The notes beneath the pieces were generated by a model. It was not told the origin of the DNA and did no database searches. It worked only from the letters and a program-made list of their open reading frames with translations. Shown one piece after another: positions 1 to 28,728 of a stretch of DNA of 64,000 bases; within the stretch, counting starts at the first letter, position 1, and each line of letters begins with the position of its first letter. The DNA comes from Roseomonas sp. (GTDB lineage Bacteria > Pseudomonadota > Alphaproteobacteria > Acetobacterales > Acetobacteraceae). The translations under genes and the position numbers were made by a program. Location of the stretch: assembly GCA_051007055.1 (NCBI GenBank), contig JBPCSO010000080.1:2702-66701 (forward strand). Direction: 5' to 3'.

Positions 1-1620
1 ATCAACCTCAATCTTGGGAAGCGTCGCATTATGCACCATGCTGCGCTTGCTGATTCCGCCGCGGCAATTGCGTACCGCCACCAATTCGCGCGAAAGCCCG
101 AAGCGGCCCGCAATATCCGCCTGCAATGAAGCACCACTCACGAAGGTCACGGCAGATAACAGACGGGAACGCCCATAGCTGCCGAACATCGGCCGATAAT
201 GCACCGGCTGCGGCGTGGGGATAGAGGCATTGGGGTCCCCCATCAGCGCCATCGCAATCGTACCGCCCTTCAACACCATATCGGGCTTCACGCCGAAAAA
301 GGCCGGTGTCCACATCACCAGATCGGCGATCTTGCCCACTTCGACGCTGCCAACATGATCAGCAACACCTTGCGCAATCGCCGGATTGATCGTGTATTTC
401 GCGATATAGCGCTTAGCGCGCGCATTGTCGTTGTCGCCCTTTTCTTCCGGCAAGCGCCCGCGCTGCACCTTCATCTTATGCGCGGTCTGCCAGGTGCGGA
501 TGATCACCTCACCCACCCGCCCCATCGCCTGGCTGTCAGATGACATCATGCTGATGGCGCCGATATCATGCAGAATATCTTCGGCCGCGATGGTTTCCTT
601 GCGGATGCGGCTTTCGGCAAAGGCCACATCTTCCGCAATGCGTGGATCAAGATGGTGGCAGACCATGAGCATATCCAAATGCTCATCTACGGTGTTCACC
701 GTGTAAGGCATGGTGGGGTTGGTGGAAGAAGGCAGCACGCCCGCTTCACCGACCAGGCGCAGAATATCCGGCGCATGGCCACCACCCGCACCTTCGGTAT
801 GGAAGGCTTGAATGGTGCGGCCACGAATGGCCTTGATGGTTTCCTCAACAAAACCACTTTCATTCAGCGTGTCGGTGTGGATGGCGATTTGGATATCCAT
901 CTCATCGGCAACCGATAGGCAGTTATCAATCGCCTTGGGTGTGGTGCCCCAATCCTCATGCAGTTTCAGCCCACAGGCGCCCGCGCGGATTTGTTCTTCC
1001 AAGCCCGCTGGCAGCGCAGCATTGCCCTTGCCGAGGAAGCCAAGGTTCATCGGGAAGCCCTCGGCGGCCTGCAACATACGCTCCATATGCCAGGGCCCGG
1101 GCGTGCAGGTGGTAGCCAGCGTGCCATGCGCCGGGCCAGTGCCGCCGCCGAACATGGAGGTAACGCCGGAAGCCAAAGCTTCTTCGATCTGCTGCGGGCA
1201 GATGAAATGGATATGCACATCGAGCCCGCCTGCGGTCAGGATGCGCCCTTCACCCGCGATGATTTCCGTGCCCGGGCCAATGATGATATCCACATTGGGT
1301 TGCGTATCCGGATTGCCCGCCTTGCCGATCGCGGCAATACGCCCACCGCGCAAGCCGATATCCGCCTTCACCACGCCCCAGTGATCCAGGATCAGCGCAT
1401 TGGTGATGACCGTATCCATCGCACCTTTGGCGCGTGTGACTTGCGATTGGCCCATGCCATCGCGGATCACCTTGCCGCCGCCGAATTTCACTTCCTCACC
1501 ATAGGTGGTCAGGTCGCGCTCAACCTCGATAAAAATTTCCGTATCGGCCAGGCGCACACGGTCGCCGACCGTTGGGCCATACATGCCGGCATAGGCGGCG
1601 CGAGAAATTTTCGTTGCCAT
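1..1620 (-). CDS. ureC: Urease subunit alpha (3' end runs off the window)
   Basis: Manual translation from ATG at 1620 gives [58 protein letters not shown], the canonical UreC N-terminus. It lies directly downstream of ureB. It is absent from the ORF track because there is no stop in the window. Confidence 0.97.
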
Positions 1621-1623
1621 GGG

Positions 1624-1929
1624 TCAGACCGCCCCTTCCGTTTCGCCGCGAAAGCCATGGATGATGCGCGCGCCTGAAAGCGGGATCAGGCGCACCTTGC
1701 GCGTCTGCCCCGGTTCAAAACGCACTGCCGTGCCGGCTGCGATATCCAGGCGGCAGCCGCGCGCCTTGGCGCGATCAAAATCGAGCAGCGGATTGGTTTC
1801 CGCGAAATGGTAATGGCTGCCCACTTGCACCGGGCGGTCGCCCTTATTCGCCACCGTGATTTCAACCGCGTCGCGGGAAGCGTTCAGCGTAATCTCGCCA
1901 GGGGCGGTGATGATTTCGCCGGGGATCAT
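1624..1929 (-). CDS. ureB: Urease subunit beta
   Basis: MIPGE...[18 protein letters not shown]...[14 protein letters not shown] motifs; ATGA overlap with the ureA stop. Confidence 0.97.
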
Positions 1930-2390
1930 TTGCGGGCTCCCTTCTTCCGGGCGGGTTTGGCCTTTGGCTTAGCCTTCGCGGCTTTCGCCTTCGGCTTAGT
2001 AGCGACTTTGGTTTTGGCTTTTGGTGCGGCTTTCACCTTTACCTTCGCCGCAGGCTTTGCCTTGGCGCCGGGCTTCTTCGCTACCGCCGCACGAATGGGC
2101 TGATGCACCGTCACCAGCTTGGTGCCATCCGGGAAGGTCGCTTCCACCTGGATTTCATGGAGCATCTCGGCGATGCCTTCCATCACCTGGTCACGCGTCA
2201 GCACGGTGGCGCCATCGCGCATCAATTCTGCAACGCTGCGGCCATCGCGCGCCCCTTCCACCACGAAATCCGTGATCAGCGCCACGGCTTCGGGGAAGTT
2301 CATTTTCAGGCCGCGTTCCAGGCGCCGTCGCGCCACGACAGCAGCCATCGCAATCATCAGCTTGTCTTTTTCACGCGGGGTCAGGTTCAT
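1926..2390 (-). CDS. ureA: Urease subunit gamma with a 54-aa Lys/Ala/Pro-rich C-terminal extension
   Basis: Residues 1-100 are canonical UreA ([11 protein letters not shown]...[18 protein letters not shown]). Residues 101-154 are a basic low-complexity tail. Confidence 0.96.
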
Positions 2391-2438: not shown

Positions 2439-3269
2439 TCATGTCGTCCATAGGCGCGGCAGCCGCGCCGGCAGGCCAAGCGCCGGGCGCAGCCGGCAAA
2501 TCGCCGCCCCCAGCCCTTCGCGCACCGGAACGGCACCGCCGAGCCAGCGCGTGACCAAAAGCCCAGGCCGCACAAGGCTCGCCAGCGCGCCATCTTCGCG
2601 CAACGCATCACGCAAATCGGGCGAGGCCAGCGGGCCGGCCAGCACCAGGCTGCCCAGCGCTTCGGCACCCGCAAAACCAAAGGGGTCGGCGAAATCGGCG
2701 GCGATATCCTCAGTAAGGCTGAGCCCATCCACCCAAAGCAGCCTGCCACCGCGTTGGATGCGCCAGGAATCCTGAAGCGCGCCGCGCCGCCAGGTCTCGC
2801 CCCGCGCGGCACGGCCAAAGACCAGCGCCTCCGCCATAAGCAAGGTGGCGTTCTCGGCGATATCGGCATTCAGGCGCCGTTCAAGCCGCGCCCCTTCAAA
2901 CAGGATGGTTTCCTGCGGAATCCATTCGAAGACAGCACCAGGGCCGGCTTCAAGCGTCACGGAAATCTCGGTAGCAGGGCCAAGACTGCGATAGATTTTC
3001 TCAGCCGCCGGGGTGGAGAAACTGGCCCGCGCCCCGGCTCCAAGACTAAGCACGATTTCCACCTTATCGCCGCCAGCAAGGCCGCCCGCGGTATTTACCA
3101 GCGCGCAGATAGGTGCCTCATCAGCCTCGGGGTCGGGAAACAGGGCGCGCATGGGAGGCGATTGATAAAGCCCGCCCAGCACCGTGCGCCCTTCATGCAG
3201 ATGGTAATCCAATTCCAACCGCCCGCGAGAGCGCTGATGGCTAGGCTGGGGCATGGAAGCAGCATTCAT
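2439..3269 (-). CDS. ureD: Urease accessory protein UreD/UreH
   Basis: LYQSPP...LVNTAGGLAGGD...STPAAEKIYRS...EWIPQETILF motifs; upstream of ureA. Confidence 0.93.
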   Translation of the reverse strand: MNAASMPQPSHQRSRGRLELDYHLHEGRTVLGGLYQSPPMRALFPDPEADEAPICALVNTAGGLAGGDKVEIVLSLGAGARASFSTPAAEKIYRSLGPATEISVTLEAGPGAVFEWIPQETILFEGARLERRLNADIAENATLLMAEALVFGRAARGETWRRGALQDSWRIQRGGRLLWVDGLSLTEDIAADFADPFGFAGAEALGSLVLAGPLASPDLRDALREDGALASLVRPGLLVTRWLGGAVPVREGLGAAICRLRPALGLPARLPRLWTT

Positions 3270-3412
3270 GGCGCGAGATTAACCACGCCCAGCGCCCGCC
3301 ACCAAATGGCGCGGCTGAGGGCAAATTCTGCGCAAAATACAGGCAGGGAAACGGGCTGGACAGGCGGGCGCGGCGCGGCTTTGGTGGCGCAGACCAAACC
3401 GGAGGCCACCCC

Positions 3413-3886
3413 ATGCGCCGCATCACCACAGAACCGCTCACCGCCGAAGCCTTCGCCCCCTTCGGGGAGGTGCTGGAAAGCCCCGCCTCGCCGGGCCGCT
3501 CCTACATAGACAAGTTTTTGGAAAACCGCCGTGGCGGGGCGGCGCCCAGCCTTTCCTTCACCCGCGCCCTGCCGAAATCAGCGCCTTTCGTGTCCACTAC
3601 TATGGAAAGGCATGAATTCTCCTCGCAATCCTTCATTCCCATGGAAGCGGGGCGCTGGCTGGCGCTGGTGGCGCCGCATGGGGCGGATGGCTTGCCAGAT
3701 ATGGCAAAGGCGCGCGCCTTTCTGGTGCGGCCCGATCAAGGGGTCACTTATGGCGCCAATGTCTGGCACCACCCTTCGACTGTCTTCGACCGCGAAGCGC
3801 GCTTCGCGGTCTTTATGTGGAAGGACGGCACTTCAGCCGATGATGAATTTGTCGAGGTCGCCCCCTTCGAATTACATCTCGGCTGA
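3413..3886 (+). CDS. allA: Ureidoglycolate lyase (AllA family)
   Basis: EPLTAEAFAPFG, MERHEFSSQSFIP and GVTYGANVWHHP motifs; GGAG RBS upstream. Confidence 0.85.
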   Translation: MRRITTEPLTAEAFAPFGEVLESPASPGRSYIDKFLENRRGGAAPSLSFTRALPKSAPFVSTTMERHEFSSQSFIPMEAGRWLALVAPHGADGLPDMAKARAFLVRPDQGVTYGANVWHHPSTVFDREARFAVFMWKDGTSADDEFVEVAPFELHLG

Positions 3887-3894
3887 AGCATGAT

Positions 3895-4896
3895 TCACGA
3901 GCCCTGAGGCTGCTGACCGCGGGTTTTCCAGAGCGACCAGAAAATCCCGCCCGCAATGATTGCCGCCGTCACGCCAAGCGAAATGGCTGGGTCAAGCTTG
4001 CCGACCATCTGGTTCCAGAAGATCTTGCCGCCGATAAAAACCAGCACCAGCGCCAGCGCATATTTCAGGTAGTGGAAGCGATGCACCATGGCGGCGAGTG
4101 CGAAGTACAGCGCGCGCAGCCCCAGGATCGCCATGATATTCGCGGTATAGACAATGAAGGTATCGGTCGTGATGGCGAAGATCGCCGGCACGCTATCCAC
4201 CGCGAAAATCAGATCGGCGATATTGATCACGACAAGCGCTAGGAAGAGCGGCGTGGCAAAGGCCAGCTTCTTGCCCGTCGCCGGATCCATCTGGCGGACG
4301 AAGAATTTCTGGCCATGCAGCTCATCCGTCACGCGCATGTGCTTGCGCATGAAACGCACCACGGGATTCTTGGAGATATCCTGCTCCCCTTCCGGCACCA
4401 CCAGCATCTTGATGCCGGTCGCAATCAGGAAGGCGCCAAAAATATAGAGTACCCAGCTATACTGCTGTACCAGCGCCGCACCCGCCGCAATCATGATGCC
4501 GCGCAGCACAATCACGCCAATGATGCCCCAGACCAAAGCGCGGTACTGGTAGCGCGCAGGAATGGCGAAATAGCCAAAGATCAGGCTGATCACGAAGACA
4601 TTGTCTATGGACAACGCCTTTTCGATGAAAAAGCCGGTGAAAAAGGCAATGCCCGCATGGGTGCCATCTGATGTGGTAATTTCGCCATTGTCATAGGCCC
4701 ACCAGATGCCCGCGCCATAGAGCATGGCAAAGGCGATATAGAAGGCGGAAAGCCAAAGGCTTTGCGCCACGCCCATTTCCTTGTCCTTACGATTCAAAAC
4801 GCCAAGGTCAAAGGCCAGCAATAGCATGACAATAAGCAGGAAGCCTTTCCACATCCAGAAAGGCTTGCCCATCCATTCAGCAGCAAGGAATTCCAT
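3895..4896 (-). CDS. TerC/Alx family integral membrane protein (putative Mn2+/metal homeostasis)
   Basis: EKALSIDNVFV, DLIFAVDSVPAIFAIT and NIMAILGLRALYF motifs. ATG at 4896 with GAGG upstream is preferred over the TTG at 4902. Confidence 0.92.
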   Translation of the reverse strand: MEFLAAEWMGKPFWMWKGFLLIVMLLLAFDLGVLNRKDKEMGVAQSLWLSAFYIAFAMLYGAGIWWAYDNGEITTSDGTHAGIAFFTGFFIEKALSIDNVFVISLIFGYFAIPARYQYRALVWGIIGVIVLRGIMIAAGAALVQQYSWVLYIFGAFLIATGIKMLVVPEGEQDISKNPVVRFMRKHMRVTDELHGQKFFVRQMDPATGKKLAFATPLFLALVVINIADLIFAVDSVPAIFAITTDTFIVYTANIMAILGLRALYFALAAMVHRFHYLKYALALVLVFIGGKIFWNQMVGKLDPAISLGVTAAIIAGGIFWSLWKTRGQQPQGS

Positions 4897-4904
4897 CCCC
4901 AAAC

Positions 4905-5025
4905 CTCATCCAATGGCGCGGATCAGCCATAGCGGGCCGAGACCGCGCAGTGTTGCACGATCCGACATCGCGATGGGTCGCCATAGAAGCGCGACTCCCG
5001 CCAGAGGGGCCCGGATTGGACAGGA
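4905..5025 (-). promoter_or_regulatory. Structured 5' leader of terC, candidate cis-regulatory RNA (terC-motif-like)
   Basis: Nested stems read by eye on the minus strand. TCCAAT/ATTGGA closes the element next to the RBS; other stems are GTCGC/GCGAC and GCGCGG..TCGGCC/GGCTGA..CCGCGC, with a CGTGCAACAC linker. Confidence 0.45.
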
Positions 5026-5188
5026 TGTGGTGAAGGCCGGAATGCTTTTCAAGCCCCATTGCGGCGGCGCCTTCAAGGAACCATTTGGGGGTTTGTGCGG
5101 TGACCCCTTGGCTAATAGGTTGCCGCCATGTCATAGGGTCCGAAGAACCGCTCCGGCGGGACTTCCAACTGGGAATTGAGGCGTCGCA

Positions 5189-5461
5189 ATGGGTTCCTTC
5201 AGCATCTGGCATTGGCTTGTGGTTCTGCTGGTCGTCCTTCTGCTTTTCGGCAGCGGCAAGATCAGCGGGCTGATGGGCGATCTCGCCAAGGGCATCAAGT
5301 CCTTCAAGCAAAATATCAAGGAAGATCAGGCCGATGCCTCCATGGAGGCGCAGGCCCAGGGGCAGTCCCAGCCGGCTGGCAGCCTTCAAGGCCCCGCCGC
5401 GGCTTCTTCCACAGCGCAGGCCGCGTCCGCGCAAACTACGCCGCCCCGCCCGGGCGCCTGA
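5189..5461 (+). CDS. tatA: Twin-arginine translocase subunit TatA
   Basis: [33 protein letters not shown] signature. Confidence 0.95.
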
Positions 5462-5614
5462 CTGACTTGCCCGCCCTCGCGCCATTTTGGCGGGGGCGGC
5501 TTCATCCCCATCCCCGGGCATTCCAGCCTGGGCTTGGGGCCAGTGATACTATCCAGGCTGCCGGGCCAAGGTTAGAACAGTTTCGCGCTTTTTTCCGCGT
5601 GGAGGGCCCGCGCC

Positions 5615-6655
5615 ATGCTCACAACCTGGACCGTTGAGGATGGCCGCTGCCGCCTGCGTGAAGGTGCAATTTCGGACATCACCGCAGCGCTGCCTGAACC
5701 CGCCCGGGAAGTCGCCGGTGAGGTGGCTGAAGCCCAAAATCTGCGCCGCGCTGTCTGGATAGATTTGCTGAACCCAACGCCGGCGGAAGAACGCGCGGTG
5801 CAAAATGCCCTCTCGCTCGAAATCCCAACGCGCGAGGAAATGCAGGAAATCGAAAGCTCCTCCCGGCTATATCGCGAAGATGAGGCGCTGTTTCTCACCG
5901 CCAATTTTCTTTATGGCGTGGATTCGGGTGAATATGGTTCCACCCCAATCAGCTTTGTGCTGACCAATAGCACCCTGGTCACGGTACGTTATGCAACCCC
6001 GCGCGCCTTCACCGCCTTTGGCGCCAGGGCGCAGCGCCAACCCGCCTTACTGCAATCGGCCGATGCAGTGATGTTGCACCTATTTGAACAGGTCGTGGAC
6101 CGGCTGGCCGATATTCTGGAAAAAGTCGGCGCGGATATGGATAAGGCGAGCCAATCCACCTTCCGTGCGTCCCAAGCTGATTTCAAGATGCATCGGCGCA
6201 ATGACAAGCTGAAAGAAGCGCTGTTCACGCTTGGCCAGGTCGGCGAAGTGACGACACGCGCATCCGAAACCCTGCTTGGCCTTTCACGGATTCTGACCTT
6301 TGTCGGGGCCGAAAAGGCAACTGCCGTGCGCAAGGAAAACCAGGCGCTGATCAAGACGCTGGTGCGCGATGTAAGGTCCTTGGTGGAACATGCGAGTTTC
6401 CTGAATTCAAAGGCGCAGTTTCTGCTGGATGCCGTGCTTGGCGTGTTGAATGTCGAACAGAACGCCATCATCAAGACCTTTACGGTCGCCTCAGTCGCGC
6501 TTATGCCGCCCACGCTGATTGCGAGCATTTACGGCATGAATTTCGAATTCATGCCAGAACTTAAGCTGGCCCTTGGTTATCCCTTGGCGCTGGTGCTCAT
6601 GATCGTTTCAGCCATTCTGCCCATTCTCTATTTCCGGCGGAAAGGCTGGCTCTAA
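5615..6655 (+). CDS. corA: CorA-family Mg2+/Co2+ transporter
   Basis: PPTLIASIYGMNF (GMN motif) and two C-terminal TM helices. Confidence 0.93.
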   Translation: MLTTWTVEDGRCRLREGAISDITAALPEPAREVAGEVAEAQNLRRAVWIDLLNPTPAEERAVQNALSLEIPTREEMQEIESSSRLYREDEALFLTANFLYGVDSGEYGSTPISFVLTNSTLVTVRYATPRAFTAFGARAQRQPALLQSADAVMLHLFEQVVDRLADILEKVGADMDKASQSTFRASQADFKMHRRNDKLKEALFTLGQVGEVTTRASETLLGLSRILTFVGAEKATAVRKENQALIKTLVRDVRSLVEHASFLNSKAQFLLDAVLGVLNVEQNAIIKTFTVASVALMPPTLIASIYGMNFEFMPELKLALGYPLALVLMIVSAILPILYFRRKGWL

Positions 6656-6671
6656 CAAAAGAGGATTTTCG

Positions 6672-7643
6672 ATGTCGCAAGCAACCCGTATCCCCGCTTC
6701 TGTCGCTACCTGCCGTTGGGGCGGGTTCGACGCTTCCTTCCCGCCGGTGGCGAGCATCGCATCAGGCGAGACCGTCATTCTGGAATGCGTCTCGGGCGGG
6801 CCGGAAGTGATGCCTGCGCCGGAGAAGGGCTTGCCGCTGCACCCCGCCATTTCGGAAATCCATACCAAGCTGCCACGGCTCGGCGCACATATCATCACCG
6901 GCCCGGTTGAGGTGCGCGGCGCCGAGCCAGGTGACGCGCTGCGCGTGGATATCGAGAAAATCGAACTCGGCGCGGATTGGGGCTTTTGCGGCTTCCGCCC
7001 GCTTTTCGGCACGCTGCCGGAAGATTTCCCCTATCGCCGCACGCTGCATATTCCGGTGAACAAGCAAGCCATGACCTGCCGCCTGCCCTTCGGGCCGCAG
7101 GATGGCGGGCTTGATCTGCCATTGGCACCCTTCTTTGGCGTGATGGGCGTGGCGCCACCGCCCGATTGGGGAATGGTGAATACCAAGGAACCGCGCGCCA
7201 TTGGCGGCAACCTCGACAATAAGGAATTGACCGAGGGCACTACGCTATTCTTGCCCATTTTCAATAAGGGCGCGCTGTTTTCCGCAGGTGATGGCCACGG
7301 CGTGCAAGGCGATGGTGAGGTCTGCATCAATGCCCTCGAAATCTGCCTAACCGGCCATTTCAAGCTTTCGGTGGTGAAGGGCGGCGGCGCCAAGGACCCC
7401 GTGCTGAAATTCCCCCGCGCGGAGACCAAAACCCATTTTATCACCATGGGGATGAATGAGGATCTGGATTTGGCGATGAAGCAGGCGCTGCGTGAGATGA
7501 TCGCCTTCATCTGTTCGCGCACCAATCTTTCGGATGCCGACGCATATCAATTCTGCTCACTGGCCGTTGATTTCCGCGTAACGCAGACGGTGAATGGCGA
7601 AAAGGGCGTGCACGGCATGTTGAAGAAGGGGTTGTTGTTCTGA
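6672..7643 (+). CDS. Acetamidase/formamidase family protein
   Basis: TGPVEVRGAEPGD, GGNLDNKEL and FSAGDGHGVQGDGEVC motifs. Confidence 0.88.
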   Translation: MSQATRIPASVATCRWGGFDASFPPVASIASGETVILECVSGGPEVMPAPEKGLPLHPAISEIHTKLPRLGAHIITGPVEVRGAEPGDALRVDIEKIELGADWGFCGFRPLFGTLPEDFPYRRTLHIPVNKQAMTCRLPFGPQDGGLDLPLAPFFGVMGVAPPPDWGMVNTKEPRAIGGNLDNKELTEGTTLFLPIFNKGALFSAGDGHGVQGDGEVCINALEICLTGHFKLSVVKGGGAKDPVLKFPRAETKTHFITMGMNEDLDLAMKQALREMIAFICSRTNLSDADAYQFCSLAVDFRVTQTVNGEKGVHGMLKKGLLF

Positions 7644-7696
7644 AAATGCGCAACGCATCCTGCGCCCCAAAGGCTCCAGAAGGGTAGCAATTCATC

Positions 7697-8776
7697 ATGG
7701 CGTCTGGCGCAAGGGATCGCATTCCACCGCTATTCATTCTGGCGCCCTTGGCAGGCATCGGTGTTTGGCTTGGCATTGGTAAGGTCGGGGTTGAGCTTCT
7801 GGCCTTGCTGACCCTTGTGACATTGCTCTGCAATGTGGTGGCGGCGGTGCATCACGCCGAAGTGGTGGCGCTGCGTGTTGGGGAGCCCTTCGGCGGCTTG
7901 ATACTGGCGCTTTCTGTCACGGTCATCGAAGCCGGGCTTATCATCTCCCTGATGCTGACTGGGGATGAGAACCCGAATCTGATGCGCGATACCTTACTCG
8001 CCACCGTCATGCTTGTGCTGCATGGCATTGCTGGGCTGGCCATTCTGGTGGGCGGCATTGTGCATCGGGAAAACCAGTTCCGGGTCGCTGGCGCCAATGC
8101 GCTTCTGGCGGTGCTGATGCCCATGGCGGTGCTGGTGCTGATCGTGCCCAATCATGTGGTATCCGCCCCAGGCCCTTATTACAGCACGGCCCAATTGGCC
8201 TTTGTTTCATTTGTTTGTCTCGCGCTCTATGGCGCCTTCCTGTTTGTGCAGACCAATCGCCACCGGGAATATTTCCTGCCGGAAGAAAGCGCTGCGGGTG
8301 AAGGGCATGCCCGCCCAAGCGGGCGCTTGGCGCTGCTGTCCTTCGCTTTGCTATGTCTTTGCCTGCTTTCGGTGGTGATGCTCGCCAAATGCCTGGCCCC
8401 AGCACTTGAAGATGGCGTCGCGGCGGCCGGTGCGCCGGTGGCAATTGTCGGCGTCATTGTCGCGGCCATTGTGCTGCTGCCAGAATCGGGGGCGGCGTTC
8501 CGCGCCGCGGCACATAACCGCATGCAGTCAGCGATCAATCTCGCGCTTGGCAGCGGTGTTGCCTCGATTGGTCTGACCGTGCCAACCGTCGCCCTGGTGA
8601 CATGGTGGTATGGTCAACCCCTGGCCCTTGGCGTTTCGCCAGGGCATTCCGTGCTCCTGGCCCTTGGCTTCGCCGTGGCCATGCTGACTTACGGAACCGG
8701 CAGAACCAATATCCTTTCCGGCATTGTGCATCTGATCTTGGCGGCGACCTTCGTTTTCACGATTTTTGCGCCGTGA
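7697..8776 (+). CDS. chaA: Ca2+(Na+)/H+ antiporter, ChaA/CAX family
   Basis: HHAEVVALRVGEPFG..ILALSVTVIE and VLLPE..AA..AA..NRMQ..INLALGS motifs; very hydrophobic. Confidence 0.85.
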   Translation: MASGARDRIPPLFILAPLAGIGVWLGIGKVGVELLALLTLVTLLCNVVAAVHHAEVVALRVGEPFGGLILALSVTVIEAGLIISLMLTGDENPNLMRDTLLATVMLVLHGIAGLAILVGGIVHRENQFRVAGANALLAVLMPMAVLVLIVPNHVVSAPGPYYSTAQLAFVSFVCLALYGAFLFVQTNRHREYFLPEESAAGEGHARPSGRLALLSFALLCLCLLSVVMLAKCLAPALEDGVAAAGAPVAIVGVIVAAIVLLPESGAAFRAAAHNRMQSAINLALGSGVASIGLTVPTVALVTWWYGQPLALGVSPGHSVLLALGFAVAMLTYGTGRTNILSGIVHLILAATFVFTIFAP

Positions 8777-26611: not shown

Positions 26612-27478
26612 TCATCCCGCCAAATGCCCCCGGCGAATGACACGTTGCGCGAGCCCATCCACTGGGCCGAACAGCACGGATATCGCCCAAGCCGCGCCCG
26701 CCATCAACACAATAGCGGGGCCGGTTGGCAGATCAGCGTGATAGGACAGCAGCAGGCCAATCACGCTGGCAAACACTGCAATGGCGGAAGCCGCATAGAC
26801 CATGCCGCTGATTTCTGCGGCCCAATGCCGCGCGGCAATGGCGGGCAGCATCATCAACCCAACGGCCATCAATGTGCCCAGCGCCAAAAAGGCGGAGAGC
26901 ATGTTCAACACCACAAGCCCCATGAACACCAAATGCCAAAATCCGCCATGCGCGCCGGTGGCCGCTGCAAAAGCCGGGTCAAAACATTCCAGCACCAAGG
27001 GCCGCCAACCGATGGCAAGGCTCACCAGCGTCAGCGTCGCCACGCCGGCCATCAGCAGTAGCGCCGCATCATCCACGCCAAGCACGCTGCCGAACAGGAT
27101 ATGCTTCAAATCCCCGGCACCACCGCCCATTGAAATCAGCGCAACACCCAACCCAAGTGCCAACAAATAAAGTGCGGCCAATGTCGCATCTTCCCGCCCG
27201 CCAGTGATGCGCGCGAGCGCGCCGGCACCCACCGCCACCAAAAGCCCGGCCACCAAGCCACCAAACCAAAGCGCCGGCACGGATAGCCCCGCGATCAGGA
27301 AGGCGACTGCGACACCCGGCAAGGCGCCGTGGGAAAGCACATCCGCCGTCAGGCTCATGCGCCGCAGCATCAGGAAAACGCCAAGCGGCGGGGCGGCTAT
27401 GGCAAGGGCGAGTGACCCCACCAAGGCGCGGCGCATGAAGCCGAATTCAACGAAGAGGCCGAAAAGCGCCTCAATCAT
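26612..27478 (-). CDS. znuB: Zn/Mn ABC transporter permease (ZnuB/AztB-like)
   Basis: FMRRAL, LGVFLMLRRMSL..D.LSHGALPG, LFGSVL and GLLLSYH.DLPTGPAI motifs. An alternative in-frame ATG at 27493 comes from the repeat element. Confidence 0.88.
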   Translation of the reverse strand: MIEALFGLFVEFGFMRRALVGSLALAIAAPPLGVFLMLRRMSLTADVLSHGALPGVAVAFLIAGLSVPALWFGGLVAGLLVAVGAGALARITGGREDATLAALYLLALGLGVALISMGGGAGDLKHILFGSVLGVDDAALLLMAGVATLTLVSLAIGWRPLVLECFDPAFAAATGAHGGFWHLVFMGLVVLNMLSAFLALGTLMAVGLMMLPAIAARHWAAEISGMVYAASAIAVFASVIGLLLSYHADLPTGPAIVLMAGAAWAISVLFGPVDGLAQRVIRRGHLAG

Positions 27479-27488
27479 GGTGGGCCGG

Positions 27489-27650
27489 AGCATTTTCAAG
27501 CCAAGTGGCATACTTGGCGGCTCGGAAAATGCGACCTAGGCGATAAGCATTTTCAAGCCAAGTGGCATACTTGGCAGCTCGGAAAATGCGACCTAGGCGA
27601 TAAACATTTTCAAGCCAAGTGGCATACTTGGCGGCTCGGAAAAGGCGACC
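27489..27650. repeat. 57-bp tandem repeat (2 full copies + 48-bp partial), each unit an imperfect palindrome
   Basis: Units start at 27489, 27546 and 27603. Unit: AGCATTTTCAAGCCAAGTGGCATACTTGGCGGCTCGGAAAATGCGACCTAGGCGATA. Internal inverted repeats are GCCAAGT/ACTTGGC and CATTTTC/GAAAATG. Confidence 0.95.
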
Positions 27651-27704
27651 AAACAATAATCTAGAGCGGTTGCCGTGAACGAAGGTGAACGGAAACCGCT
27701 CTAG
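27651..27704. repeat. AAACAATAAT linker plus CTAG-bounded hairpin, distal module of the palindromic element
   Basis: CTAGAGCGGTT (27661-27671) ... AACCGCTCTAG (27694-27704), a perfect 11-bp inverted repeat. Confidence 0.85.
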
Positions 27705-27705
27705 T

Positions 27706-28443
27706 TCAGGCCGCGCGCTCACAAGCCTCAGCCTCTTCCGACCAGCCTTCGGCCATTTGCCGCGCCTTGAGGCGATTGGCGGGCGACAGCGCCTGCGCCG
27801 TCGGCCCCCAGGCGATCAGATCGCGCGCGAGCAAAAGGGTTTCCGGAAACTCCCGCGCCACAAGATCAAGGTCATGCAATACCGCAATCACGGTGCGGCC
27901 TTCGCCATGCCATTGGCGGATCAGCCGCAGCAGATCGGCGGCGGTTTTCGCATCCACTGCATTGAAGGGCTCATCCAACAGCAGGATATCGGCATCCTGC
28001 ACCAGAAGCCGCGCGAAAAGCAGGCGCTGCAATTGCCCGGCTGAAAGGCTGCCCACCGGGCGCCGCGCCAGACCCGCCAGGCCAACGGCGGCGAGTGCCT
28101 GGTCAACGCGGGTATGCTCAGCGGTGGGTACGGCGCGGAAGGCACCGATGCGCGGCCAAAGCCCCTGCATCACCACATCGCGGCAGGCAATCGGGAAGGC
28201 ACGATCCAAAGCAGCCAATTGCGGCAGCAGGCCGATGCGTGCCTCACCTTCATGCGCGATGCGCCCGGATTCAGGCTTATGCAGCCCAGCAAGCGCGCGC
28301 AGCAGCGTGGTCTTGCCCGCACCATTCGGCCCGACAATCGCAGTCAGGCTGCCCGGCGCGAAGCGCCCCGAGAGATGATGCACCGCCGGGCGGCGGCCAT
28401 GGCAGATCGTAAGATCAGCCAATTCCAGCGCGGCGGGTGTCAT
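27706..28443 (-). CDS. znuC: Metal ABC transporter ATP-binding subunit (ZnuC/AztA-like)
   Basis: Walker A GPNGAGKT, signature LSAGQ, Walker B LLLDEP, H-loop VLHD. Start ATG 28443 (MTPAALEL) overlaps the upstream small ORF stop. Confidence 0.9.
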   Translation of the reverse strand: MTPAALELADLTICHGRRPAVHHLSGRFAPGSLTAIVGPNGAGKTTLLRALAGLHKPESGRIAHEGEARIGLLPQLAALDRAFPIACRDVVMQGLWPRIGAFRAVPTAEHTRVDQALAAVGLAGLARRPVGSLSAGQLQRLLFARLLVQDADILLLDEPFNAVDAKTAADLLRLIRQWHGEGRTVIAVLHDLDLVAREFPETLLLARDLIAWGPTAQALSPANRLKARQMAEGWSEEAEACERAA

Positions 28444-28553
28444 GCCGAAAGTGCCCAGGCAACCCCGGCCCACAGCAAGGCGGCGAGCATGGCGGAAAGG
28501 CCAAGCCGAGCGGCGATGCCGCCCGAAAGGGCAAGGGGGTTCGGGAAACTCAT
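28440..28553 (-). CDS. 37-aa hydrophobic small protein heading the metal ABC operon
   Basis: MSFPNPLALSGGIAARLGLSAMLAALLWAGVAWALSA; its TGA overlaps the znuC ATG (ATGA); one TM-like helix. Confidence 0.6.
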   Translation of the reverse strand: MSFPNPLALSGGIAARLGLSAMLAALLWAGVAWALSA

Positions 28554-28559
28554 ATGCTT

Positions 28560-28574
28560 TGATATAACATAACA
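28560..28574. promoter_or_regulatory. Zur-type operator
   Basis: TGATAT-AAC-ATAACA, one mismatch to the palindrome TGTTAT-N3-ATAACA, immediately upstream of the small ORF-znuC-znuB unit. Confidence 0.7.
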
Positions 28575-28728
28575 TCGGCCGCTGCCAAGCGCCGTCATCG
28601 GGTTGGCTGCCTGCTCCGGCACCCAAGGGGATCAATTTACAGGCATTTCGGGCGGAATGCCCCTGCTTTCACGCAATCGTCGCCAAAGCGTCATTGCGGC
28701 GCCATGGGCCTCGCGCTAACCCGCGCTT

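Follow-up and report, generated by a model that had tools for sequence, protein, structure and literature searches.

A histone-H1-like polycationic tail on the urease gamma subunit of a freshwater Roseomonas lineage

Why should the gamma subunit of a urease carry a lysine-rich tail of the kind known from bacterial chromatin proteins? The question is raised by ureA in a 64,000-nucleotide (nt) stretch of a Roseomonas sp. contig (JBPCSO010000080.1; hereafter ‘the window’), whose product of 154 amino acids (aa) misses the typical gamma size of ~100 aa with an end in ...P-I-R/G. A first-pass annotation of this DNA, correct in detail but silent on the minus-strand location of ureA, had described a 54-aa extension after VHQPIR (residue 100), and both the list of open reading frames (ORFs) and the Pfam and NCBIfam domain limits bear this out. 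We are highly confident that this lysine-, alanine- and proline-rich (K/A/P) tail is a real, selected coding extension; by analogy with known proteins, it might serve to tether the enzyme to cellular polyanions. The features on which the argument builds are the following.

1926..2390, minus strand: ureA, urease gamma with C-terminal extension, 154 codons plus stop (ORF list, PF00547, NF009712, TIGR00193)
2091..2390, minus strand: canonical gamma domain, codons 1-100, ending in ...VHQPIR (Pfam/NCBIfam; predicted local distance difference test score, pLDDT, 84-95)
1929..2090, minus strand: K/A/P tail, 54 codons, predicted disordered (composition, pLDDT, ratio of non-synonymous to synonymous divergence (pN/pS), no Pfam/NCBIfam match, no tandem repeat)
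1926..1929, minus strand: ATGA overlap of the ureA stop TGA (1926-1928) with the ureB start ATG (1927-1929)
1937..1941, minus strand: ureB Shine-Dalgarno sequence GGGAG, 7 nt upstream of the ureB ATG, within tail codons K-G-A
1624..1929, minus strand: ureB, urease beta subunit, 101 aa (PF00699, NF009682)
1..1621, minus strand: ureC, urease alpha, 5’ part only, running off the window start, ATG at 1621 (sequence, and synteny with ureDABCEFG in loci L165-L170)
2439..3269, minus strand: ureD, urease accessory protein, 276 aa, upstream of ureA (PF01774)

Residues 1-99 of the ureA product match all 99 positions of PF00547 (E 6e-46; 155.2 bits versus a cut-off of 23.9), and residues 1-100 match NF009712 (‘urease subunit gamma’; 169.6 bits versus a cut-off of 123), with TIGR00193 also exceeding its cut-off. 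The 154-aa UreA departs from urease gamma in architecture, not in family. Nor is it a bifunctional gamma/beta subunit, as it scores 160.6 on NF009671 (cut-off 243) and ends in its own TGA, with ureB forming a separate, overlapping ORF. The order expected of a urease operon is present, ureD, ureA and ureB lying in the window and the full ureDABCEFG set in the syntenic loci L165-L170 from metagenome-assembled genomes (MAGs). The reported overlap of the ureA stop with the ureB ATG and the placement of the ureB ribosome-binding site within the tail proved accurate. A programmed frameshift joining gamma and tail to beta is disfavoured, the sequence showing no slippery heptamer at CGC AAA TGA, and a very hydrophobic 98-aa ORF opposite the tail (1807-2103, plus strand) is a mirror of the Lys/Ala codons, not a gene.

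Residues 101-154 comprise 20 K, 18 A, 6 P, 4 V, 2 G, 2 T and 2 R without any D or E—a recount that agrees exactly with the first-pass figures for basic and acidic residues—amounting to 5.5 kDa with a net charge of +22 and a predicted isoelectric point (pI) of 12; with its TGA stop, the 54-codon tail spans 1926-2090. The calculated mass of the whole UreA is 16.6 kDa, versus 11.2 kDa were the tail absent. A histone-H1-like composition, dominated by Lys, Ala and Pro and nearly devoid of acids and aromatics, characterizes both the window tail and the tails clade-wide. Regular KPAA or PAKKA tandem repeats are not found in the window tail, which holds one KPAA, no PAKKA and irregularly spaced K/R residues (gaps of 1 to 4). 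At the DNA level, Tandem Repeats Finder returned no tandem repeat in the tail even at a minimum score of 30; 19 different codons are used, Lys being encoded by both AAA (7) and AAG (13). This rules out a microsatellite, as had been argued at first pass. Searched alone against Pfam and NCBIfam at E values up to 10, the tail gave no Pfam and no meaningful NCBIfam match, speaking against membership in a described tail or domain family. A six-frame scan of the window revealed no other K-rich, acid-free segment, and all 16 such segments in 824 kb of fetched loci were UreA tails. The tail therefore exceeds what chance would produce, and K/A/P tails are not a habit of neighbouring genes, in the window or in those loci.

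The extension recurs in material assembled independently of this contig. All 120 of the closest database clusters, from NCBI, JGI, ENA and Logan assemblies and in several cases named ‘MAG: Roseomonas sp.’, are proteins of 144-160 aa with K/A/P tails ending in ...ARKGARK; hundreds of tail entries reside in databases, annotated just as ‘urease subunit gamma’. Logan contigs from two independent freshwater-sediment runs showed zero differences from the window across the core/tail boundary (2090/2091). Metatranscriptome contigs from rivers and lakes cover ~2007-2380 and beyond and cross this boundary into variant K/A/P-coding sequence; they stem from related strains (88-95% identity), and such libraries may contain DNA. 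Identical independent DNA assemblies at the junction and metatranscriptome contigs spanning it uphold the first-pass view of a genuinely coding extension rather than an assembly error, and the tail would be translated into a stable product.

How did the tail originate? In the tail-less relatives Paeniroseomonas aquatica, Acidocella and Acidisphaera, the junction reads ...CCG ATC CGA TGA TCC, Arg100 being followed directly by the same stop/start overlap, whereas the window holds 162 nt in frame between the Arg100 codon and the preserved ATGA. Since the overlap directly follows Arg100 in these relatives, the tail is an insertion, not readthrough into former intergenic DNA. No donor of the 162-nt insert was found, a tail-only database search not having been made as same-clade UreA tails would flood the results.

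UreA ends exactly at residue 100 in 69 of 80 metagenome relatives and in most of 80 genome relatives; tblastn matches beyond this residue in metagenome loci turned out to be stop-codon read-through, not tails. Tailed protein clusters number more than 230, with tails of 30-79 aa. A provisional measure of rarity—the tail in 1 of 80 species, among the loci listed—was withdrawn, as the exact window-core peptide patterns behind it missed Neoroseomonas and relatives. The first-pass annotation had suggested looking for UreA homologues above 130 aa, and a search with the divergent tailed homologue P0122 (core 88% and UreD 64% identical; 73% guanine-cytosine (GC) content) returned many further tailed proteins of 130-179 aa. 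Isolates are among the sources, the tailed protein measuring 155 aa in Roseomonas sp. PWR1, 159 aa in Neoroseomonas soli and 172 aa in Neoroseomonas lacus, and tailed UreA also occurs on large assembled contigs of 4.6 and 5.2 Mb. Tail-bearing genome assemblies include GCA_020249925.1, GCA_017813355.1, GCA_018129065.1 and GCA_014644535.1. The ureA/ureB overlap was kept in all four operons fetched from the P0122-type search. In one source, the 172-aa protein of N. lacus (P0294; L174 3501-4019) is annotated as ‘hypothetical protein GCM10011320_30270’, the annotation seemingly misled by the extension.

A neighbour-joining tree of urease genes only (concatenated UreB and UreC, 668 ungapped columns, 200 bootstraps) placed all tailed taxa in one clade with a moderate bootstrap of 80, inside a parent with 100% support. 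The sister group consists of tail-less Paeniroseomonas, Falsiroseomonas and a river MAG, while the likewise tail-less Roseococcus, Acidocella and Acidisphaera fall, with others, outside the parent. Conservation of the tail composition across Acetobacteraceae, which the first-pass annotation had raised as a question, thus held within one sub-clade and failed in all five of these named genera. UreC divergence within the tailed clade reaches ~13%, and the tails are barely alignable; among the members sampled, no tail loss was seen. On this tree, the simplest history is one tail gain with no sampled loss. The tail would have arisen once, inserted in frame after Arg100 and ahead of the stop, in the ancestor of an Acetobacteraceae sub-clade uniting Neoroseomonas and relatives with the freshwater ‘Roseomonas sp.’ lineage—a widespread one—to which the window organism belongs. 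As a separate observation, UreA of Falsiroseomonas selenitidurans (L002 3001-3345), from the tail-less sister group, has an extension of 14 aa that is not basic, DPVAEPRSEARSGA, with a gap of 14 nt separating ureA from ureB. The extension begins with ‘DP.A’, resembling the ‘DA.P’ start of high-GC tails, and might be a forerunner or a relic of the tail or have nothing to do with it.

Is the tail maintained as a protein? Among nine distinct DNA sequences of the freshwater clade, indels were all multiples of three (3 to 39 nt), and the Nei-Gojobori ratio of non-synonymous to synonymous substitution rates (dN/dS) was 0.17 in the tail versus 0.05 in the core. Four phylogenetically independent close pairs yielded 35 non-synonymous and 53 synonymous differences in the tail (pN/pS 0.22; binomial p = 1.9e-12 versus neutrality). 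Composition is retained as well: 174 freshwater-clade tails contain 36% K, 35% A, 16% P and 0.11% D+E with net charges of +8 to +29, and 60 high-GC tails 34% A, 24% K, 10% R, 15% P and 2% D+E (mostly a conserved Asp101). Of the non-synonymous outcomes of single-base changes to tail codons, ~12% would be D or E and ~6% stops. Synonymous divergence was not lower in the tail than in the core (pS 0.41 versus 0.22), and as synonymous sites show no extra constraint, a DNA- or RNA-level reason for the tail is disfavoured. The best conserved tail residues are the C-terminal ...KKGARK or ...KGARR, since this end coincides with the ureB Shine-Dalgarno sequence and is doubly constrained. Together, pN/pS and whole-codon indels point to purifying selection at the protein level, as the first-pass annotation had supposed from codon variety, and suggest that charge and composition of the peptide, not an RNA element or a particular sequence, are what selection maintains.

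To see how widely such extensions occur, 1.84 billion cluster representatives were searched and the best 150 UreA clusters inspected. Among these, basic C-terminal extensions were of three kinds only, the remaining long entries being gamma-beta fusions or frameshifted gene calls. The third kind comprises P0187 and ~20 relatives (P0379-P0407, P0446, P0452; loci L084 1385-1813 and L171 10001-10417), whose cores end in VH.PIG/A and are ~71% identical to the window core, with UreD at 38% identity. Their tails of 21-44 aa are rich in K, R, S and G (for example AKRVVGKKSLKKSAGKSGAKAGGRTKSKKKRK), carry net charges of +9 to +17 and sit in otherwise ordinary urtABCDE-ureDABCEF operons. These cores are ~90% identical to cyanobacterial UreA; gene neighbourhood and a GC content of 60-64% are not diagnostic of taxon. 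Judged by these comparisons, a polybasic UreA C-terminus was gained independently in the P0187 lineage, and this second gain suggests the positive charge itself to be useful—the strongest computational argument in our analysis.

Other long gamma subunits came to light alongside. Mesorhizobium sp. IMUNJ23232 (L016 3001-3948; P0128, P0131) encodes a 315-aa UreA with a normal gamma domain and a ~215-aa non-basic C-terminal domain (GASEVFEAPMHFEPWVGAGY...LLFLGDSHYGD...), for which Pfam returned no match; this extension differs in kind from the K/A/P tail. Several MAGs, from Alphaproteobacteria and other groups, encode gamma-beta fused urease subunits of 206-209 aa (L025, L129, L146, L148, L161), although their relatives otherwise have split genes.

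We then turned to the physical properties of the tailed enzyme. AlphaFold2, run on a 63-sequence alignment, modelled core residues 1-100 with pLDDT 84-95 and, from residue 104 onward, a chain with pLDDT below 50 and no secondary structure, so that the tail is predicted to be intrinsically disordered. Among solved ureases, none has a tail of such kind, gamma chains being 100-104 aa or beta-fused throughout. The gamma C-terminus must be surface-exposed, because in gamma-beta fused ureases the chain runs from the same point into a linker. The net charge of UreA core, UreB and UreC combined is -10 to -12 in tailed MAGs versus -9 to -21 in tail-less relatives, and the tail moves the protomer to +6 to +11, raising the pI from ~6.0 to 8.7-9.0. 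As the body is no more acidic than that of tail-less relatives, the tail reverses the charge of the enzyme rather than compensating for an unusually acidic one. Canonical bacterial urease is an (alpha-beta-gamma)3 assembly; each particle would accordingly combine an acidic body with three arms of +16 to +24 charge.

Several bacterial systems offer points of comparison. The C-terminal domains of Pseudomonas AlgP and PhaF share with the UreA tail its richness in Lys, Ala and Pro, lack of acids, disorder and histone-H1-like composition, and their KPAA motif occurs 145 times in 234 UreA tails. In AlgP, though, regular tandem KPAA repeats extend over 154 aa with a net charge of +55, as opposed to 30-79 irregular residues without a DNA tandem repeat; AlgP and PhaF are nucleoid or granule proteins, whereas the UreA tail sits on a catalytic metabolic enzyme and gave no profile-level homology in Pfam or NCBIfam. 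DNA binding in vitro has been shown for KPAA-repeat peptides and for part of the AlgP C-terminal domain; AlgP localizes to polyphosphate granules, whose even spacing under nitrogen starvation depends on that domain (PMC9239181). The mycobacterial Hlp/HupB and Ku proteins, with their PAKKA tails, and Deinococcus HU likewise combine a conserved globular core with a fast-evolving, lineage-specific Lys-rich tail; PAKKA-type tails are found in free-living species and vary in length, interaction with DNA is known for those of mycobacterial Ku and Hlp, and such tails have been proposed to have evolved repeatedly (PMC3553676). Unlike the UreA core, the cores of Hlp, Ku and HU themselves bind DNA, with the tail modulating this activity, and PAKKA is nearly absent from UreA tails (2 in 234). 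In gamma-beta fused ureases (Helicobacter UreA, NF009671, plant single-chain enzymes), the chain extends past the gamma C-terminus at the same point as the tail, yet a short linker leads into the beta domain there, whereas tailed UreA ends in a free basic tail and a stop with ureB kept separate. A further parallel is supercharged (+25) green fluorescent protein (GFP) in Escherichia coli, like tailed urease a soluble protein made strongly cationic, albeit an engineered, uniformly surface-charged globule rather than a natural enzyme with localized, disordered tails (PMC5726854). GFP variants of positive charge bind to ribosomes, with diffusion slowed by as much as 100-fold, and free positive proteins are essentially lacking from natural bacterial cytoplasmic proteomes (PMC5726854). 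Since +25 GFP behaves in this way, slowed, ribosome-bound behaviour would be expected of a urease with three +22 arms. Overall, the tail may resemble those of AlgP/PhaF or Hlp/Ku in action, but is not classifiable within them.

What, then, might the tail do? In the reading we prefer, the arms would bind cellular polyanions non-specifically and multivalently, as do the AlgP, PhaF, Hlp/HupB and Ku tails. Their targets would be nucleoid DNA and nucleoid-embedded polyphosphate in the first place and ribosomal or messenger RNA in the second, the acidic body of urease itself being a further possible partner. The outcome would be an enzyme tethered, slowed or clustered instead of diffusing freely. 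We are about evenly divided on whether such polyanion tethering is the function of the tail; the binding, the in-vivo partner and the physiological benefit we infer by analogy. A more specific version, in which the arms dock urease on the nucleoid/polyphosphate phase or drive an electrostatic condensate, chiefly under nitrogen starvation, a condition in which polyphosphate granules appear and urea must be scavenged, is a tentative extension to which we give appreciably less credence.

A number of points weigh against polyanion tethering. To our knowledge, the characterized K/A/P tails all belong to proteins acting on DNA or storage granules and none to a soluble metabolic enzyme, so that their function is transferred by analogy; the tail’s protein product and its binding partner are both reached by indirect routes. 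The single KPAA, missing PAKKA, lack of regular periodicity and lack of a profile-family match loosen the link to the described tails. Ureases of the sister clade, like almost all others, function without a tail, so any benefit must be lineage-specific, and no partner-indicating neighbour gene specific to tailed genomes was present at the loci compared. Tail length (30-79 aa) and sequence also turn over fast, as weakly constrained low-complexity regions would, and alignment of low-complexity sequence can bias dN/dS, an effect lessened but not removed by the use of close independent pairs.

Three other readings strike us as unlikely, each to a similar degree. Polybasic segments commonly serve to target proteins to membranes electrostatically, and the arms might hold urease on the anionic phospholipids of the inner membrane beside urea uptake, so that urea would be hydrolysed on entry. 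Three arms per trimer would give avidity, the operon of the second tailed lineage is directly preceded by urtABCDE-type ATP-binding cassette transporter genes, and at locus L175 a Peripla_BP_5/6 gene adjoins ureD. Yet the operon of the freshwater clade is not next to urt genes, the tails are devoid of hydrophobic or amphipathic segments (among 6159 tail residues, F, W, Y, C, I, L and M hardly occur), and K/A/P composition fits H1-like tails that bind DNA or polyphosphate, not known bacterial membrane anchors. Membrane tethering is hence improbable in our estimate.

We are similarly doubtful of a purely physical role that needs no partner, with the tail acting as a solubilizing entropic bristle, as a pI shifter or as a cross-linker of neighbouring acidic trimers into higher-order assemblies. 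Its predicted disorder and the apparent focus of selection on charge and composition, not sequence, would suit such a role, and an acidic globule (~-33 per trimer) with three +22 arms has a block-polyampholyte layout that favours tail-to-body contacts. Against this, the globular subunits, at -10 to -12, fall among those of tail-less relatives (-9 to -21) and leave nothing to compensate, and a net-positive cytoplasmic enzyme of pI 9 is expected to stick to RNA or DNA, making a partner-free state unlikely in vivo (PMC5726854).

The third of these readings, to which we likewise accord little probability, holds the tail to be a slippage-prone low-complexity insertion fixed by chance, of which only grossly harmful variants are purged, such as stops, frameshifts disrupting ureB coupling and aggregation-prone residues. 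Rapid turnover of length and sequence with many indels, the absence of the tail from the sister clade and almost all other ureases, and the coincidence of the most conserved tail residues with the ureB ribosome-binding site are what it would predict. It fits less well with a pN/pS of 0.22 across the entire tail, with retention of Lys/Arg and near-exclusion of acids over ~13% UreC divergence—even at 73% GC, against the mutational bias on Lys codons—with the lack of tail loss among the clade members sampled, and with the independent gain of a polybasic tail in a second lineage.

Far less probable still is that the 162-nt insert acts as RNA, as a purine-rich spacer or standby site tuning ureB translation with the peptide as a by-product. 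The AAG-GCN codon pairs do give many AAGG motifs, and the ureB Shine-Dalgarno sequence lies within the tail, but the tail shows no drop in synonymous divergence, its lysines use AAA as well as AAG codons, amino-acid composition and not nucleotide sequence is conserved between lineages, and tail-less relatives couple ureB via the same ATGA without a spacer. Finally, an artefact confined to this contig, whether from misassembly, faulty gene calling or chance readthrough, is refuted for practical purposes by the same sequence in independent runs, by hundreds of independent tail-bearing assemblies (NCBI, JGI, ENA, Logan) including isolate genomes, by transcripts spanning the junction and by a frame preserved through indels of 3 to 39 nt.

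With respect to the wider locus, the MAGs GCA_020249925, GCA_020249765 and GCA_020249845 share the gene order of the window around the urease operon. Beside urease, positions 3413-8776 encode further functions in nitrogen release or ion handling: a ureidoglycolate lyase, TerC, TatA, CorA, an FmdA/AmdA-type formamidase/acetamidase and a Na/Ca exchanger, an arrangement conserved across the freshwater clade (L165-L170), with an amidase also present in some MAGs. The GC content of the window is 62%, versus 73% in tailed soil relatives. A sigma-54 promoter upstream of ureD was considered and dropped, as the pattern occurs at chance level (141 matches versus 126 expected) and 3270-3412 holds nothing convincing. 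Elsewhere in the window, a 57-bp tandem repeat (27489-27650; 2.8 copies, 96% identity) carries in each unit a perfect hairpin, GCCAAGT-GGCAT-ACTTGGC. It sits at the ends of and between the minus-strand ORFs 26612..27511 and 27706..28635, with a second hairpin at ~27650-27700; the region gave no match in Rfam and looks like an intergenic repeat of the repetitive extragenic palindromic (REP) type.

A full-text literature search returned no paper on a Lys-rich urease tail, nor on urease linked to polyphosphate, nucleoid or condensates, in agreement with the first-pass statement that no described urease with such a tail was known. Standard proteomics would miss the tail, because trypsin leaves tail peptides of at most 6 aa. 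The novelty lies in the carrier, since an H1-like polycationic tail is seen here on a metabolic enzyme, a class of protein new for such tails; the tail sequences themselves are public but had gone unremarked. The system is tractable, with cultured tailed strains (N. soli, N. lacus, Roseomonas sp. PWR1) and close tail-less ones (Paeniroseomonas aquatica, Falsiroseomonas selenitidurans) at hand, and pertains to a widespread freshwater clade whose ureA is transcribed in rivers and lakes.

Lys-rich, H1-like tails are known from bacterial chromatin, repair and storage-granule proteins, in which they serve positioning on the nucleoid or on polyphosphate, and the UreA case would extend the principle to metabolism, strengthened by retention of the tail through a multi-genus radiation and by an independent polybasic tail elsewhere. 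A tailed urease runs counter to the near-absence of free positive proteins in the bacterial cytoplasm (PMC5726854), and its tail would serve as the enzyme’s own electrostatic address label. Should the tentative docking or condensation model hold, urease would become the first known case of a central nitrogen-metabolism enzyme with a polyanion-scaffolding tail of its own, and the independent tail in a second lineage would suggest a general advantage of immobilized urease.

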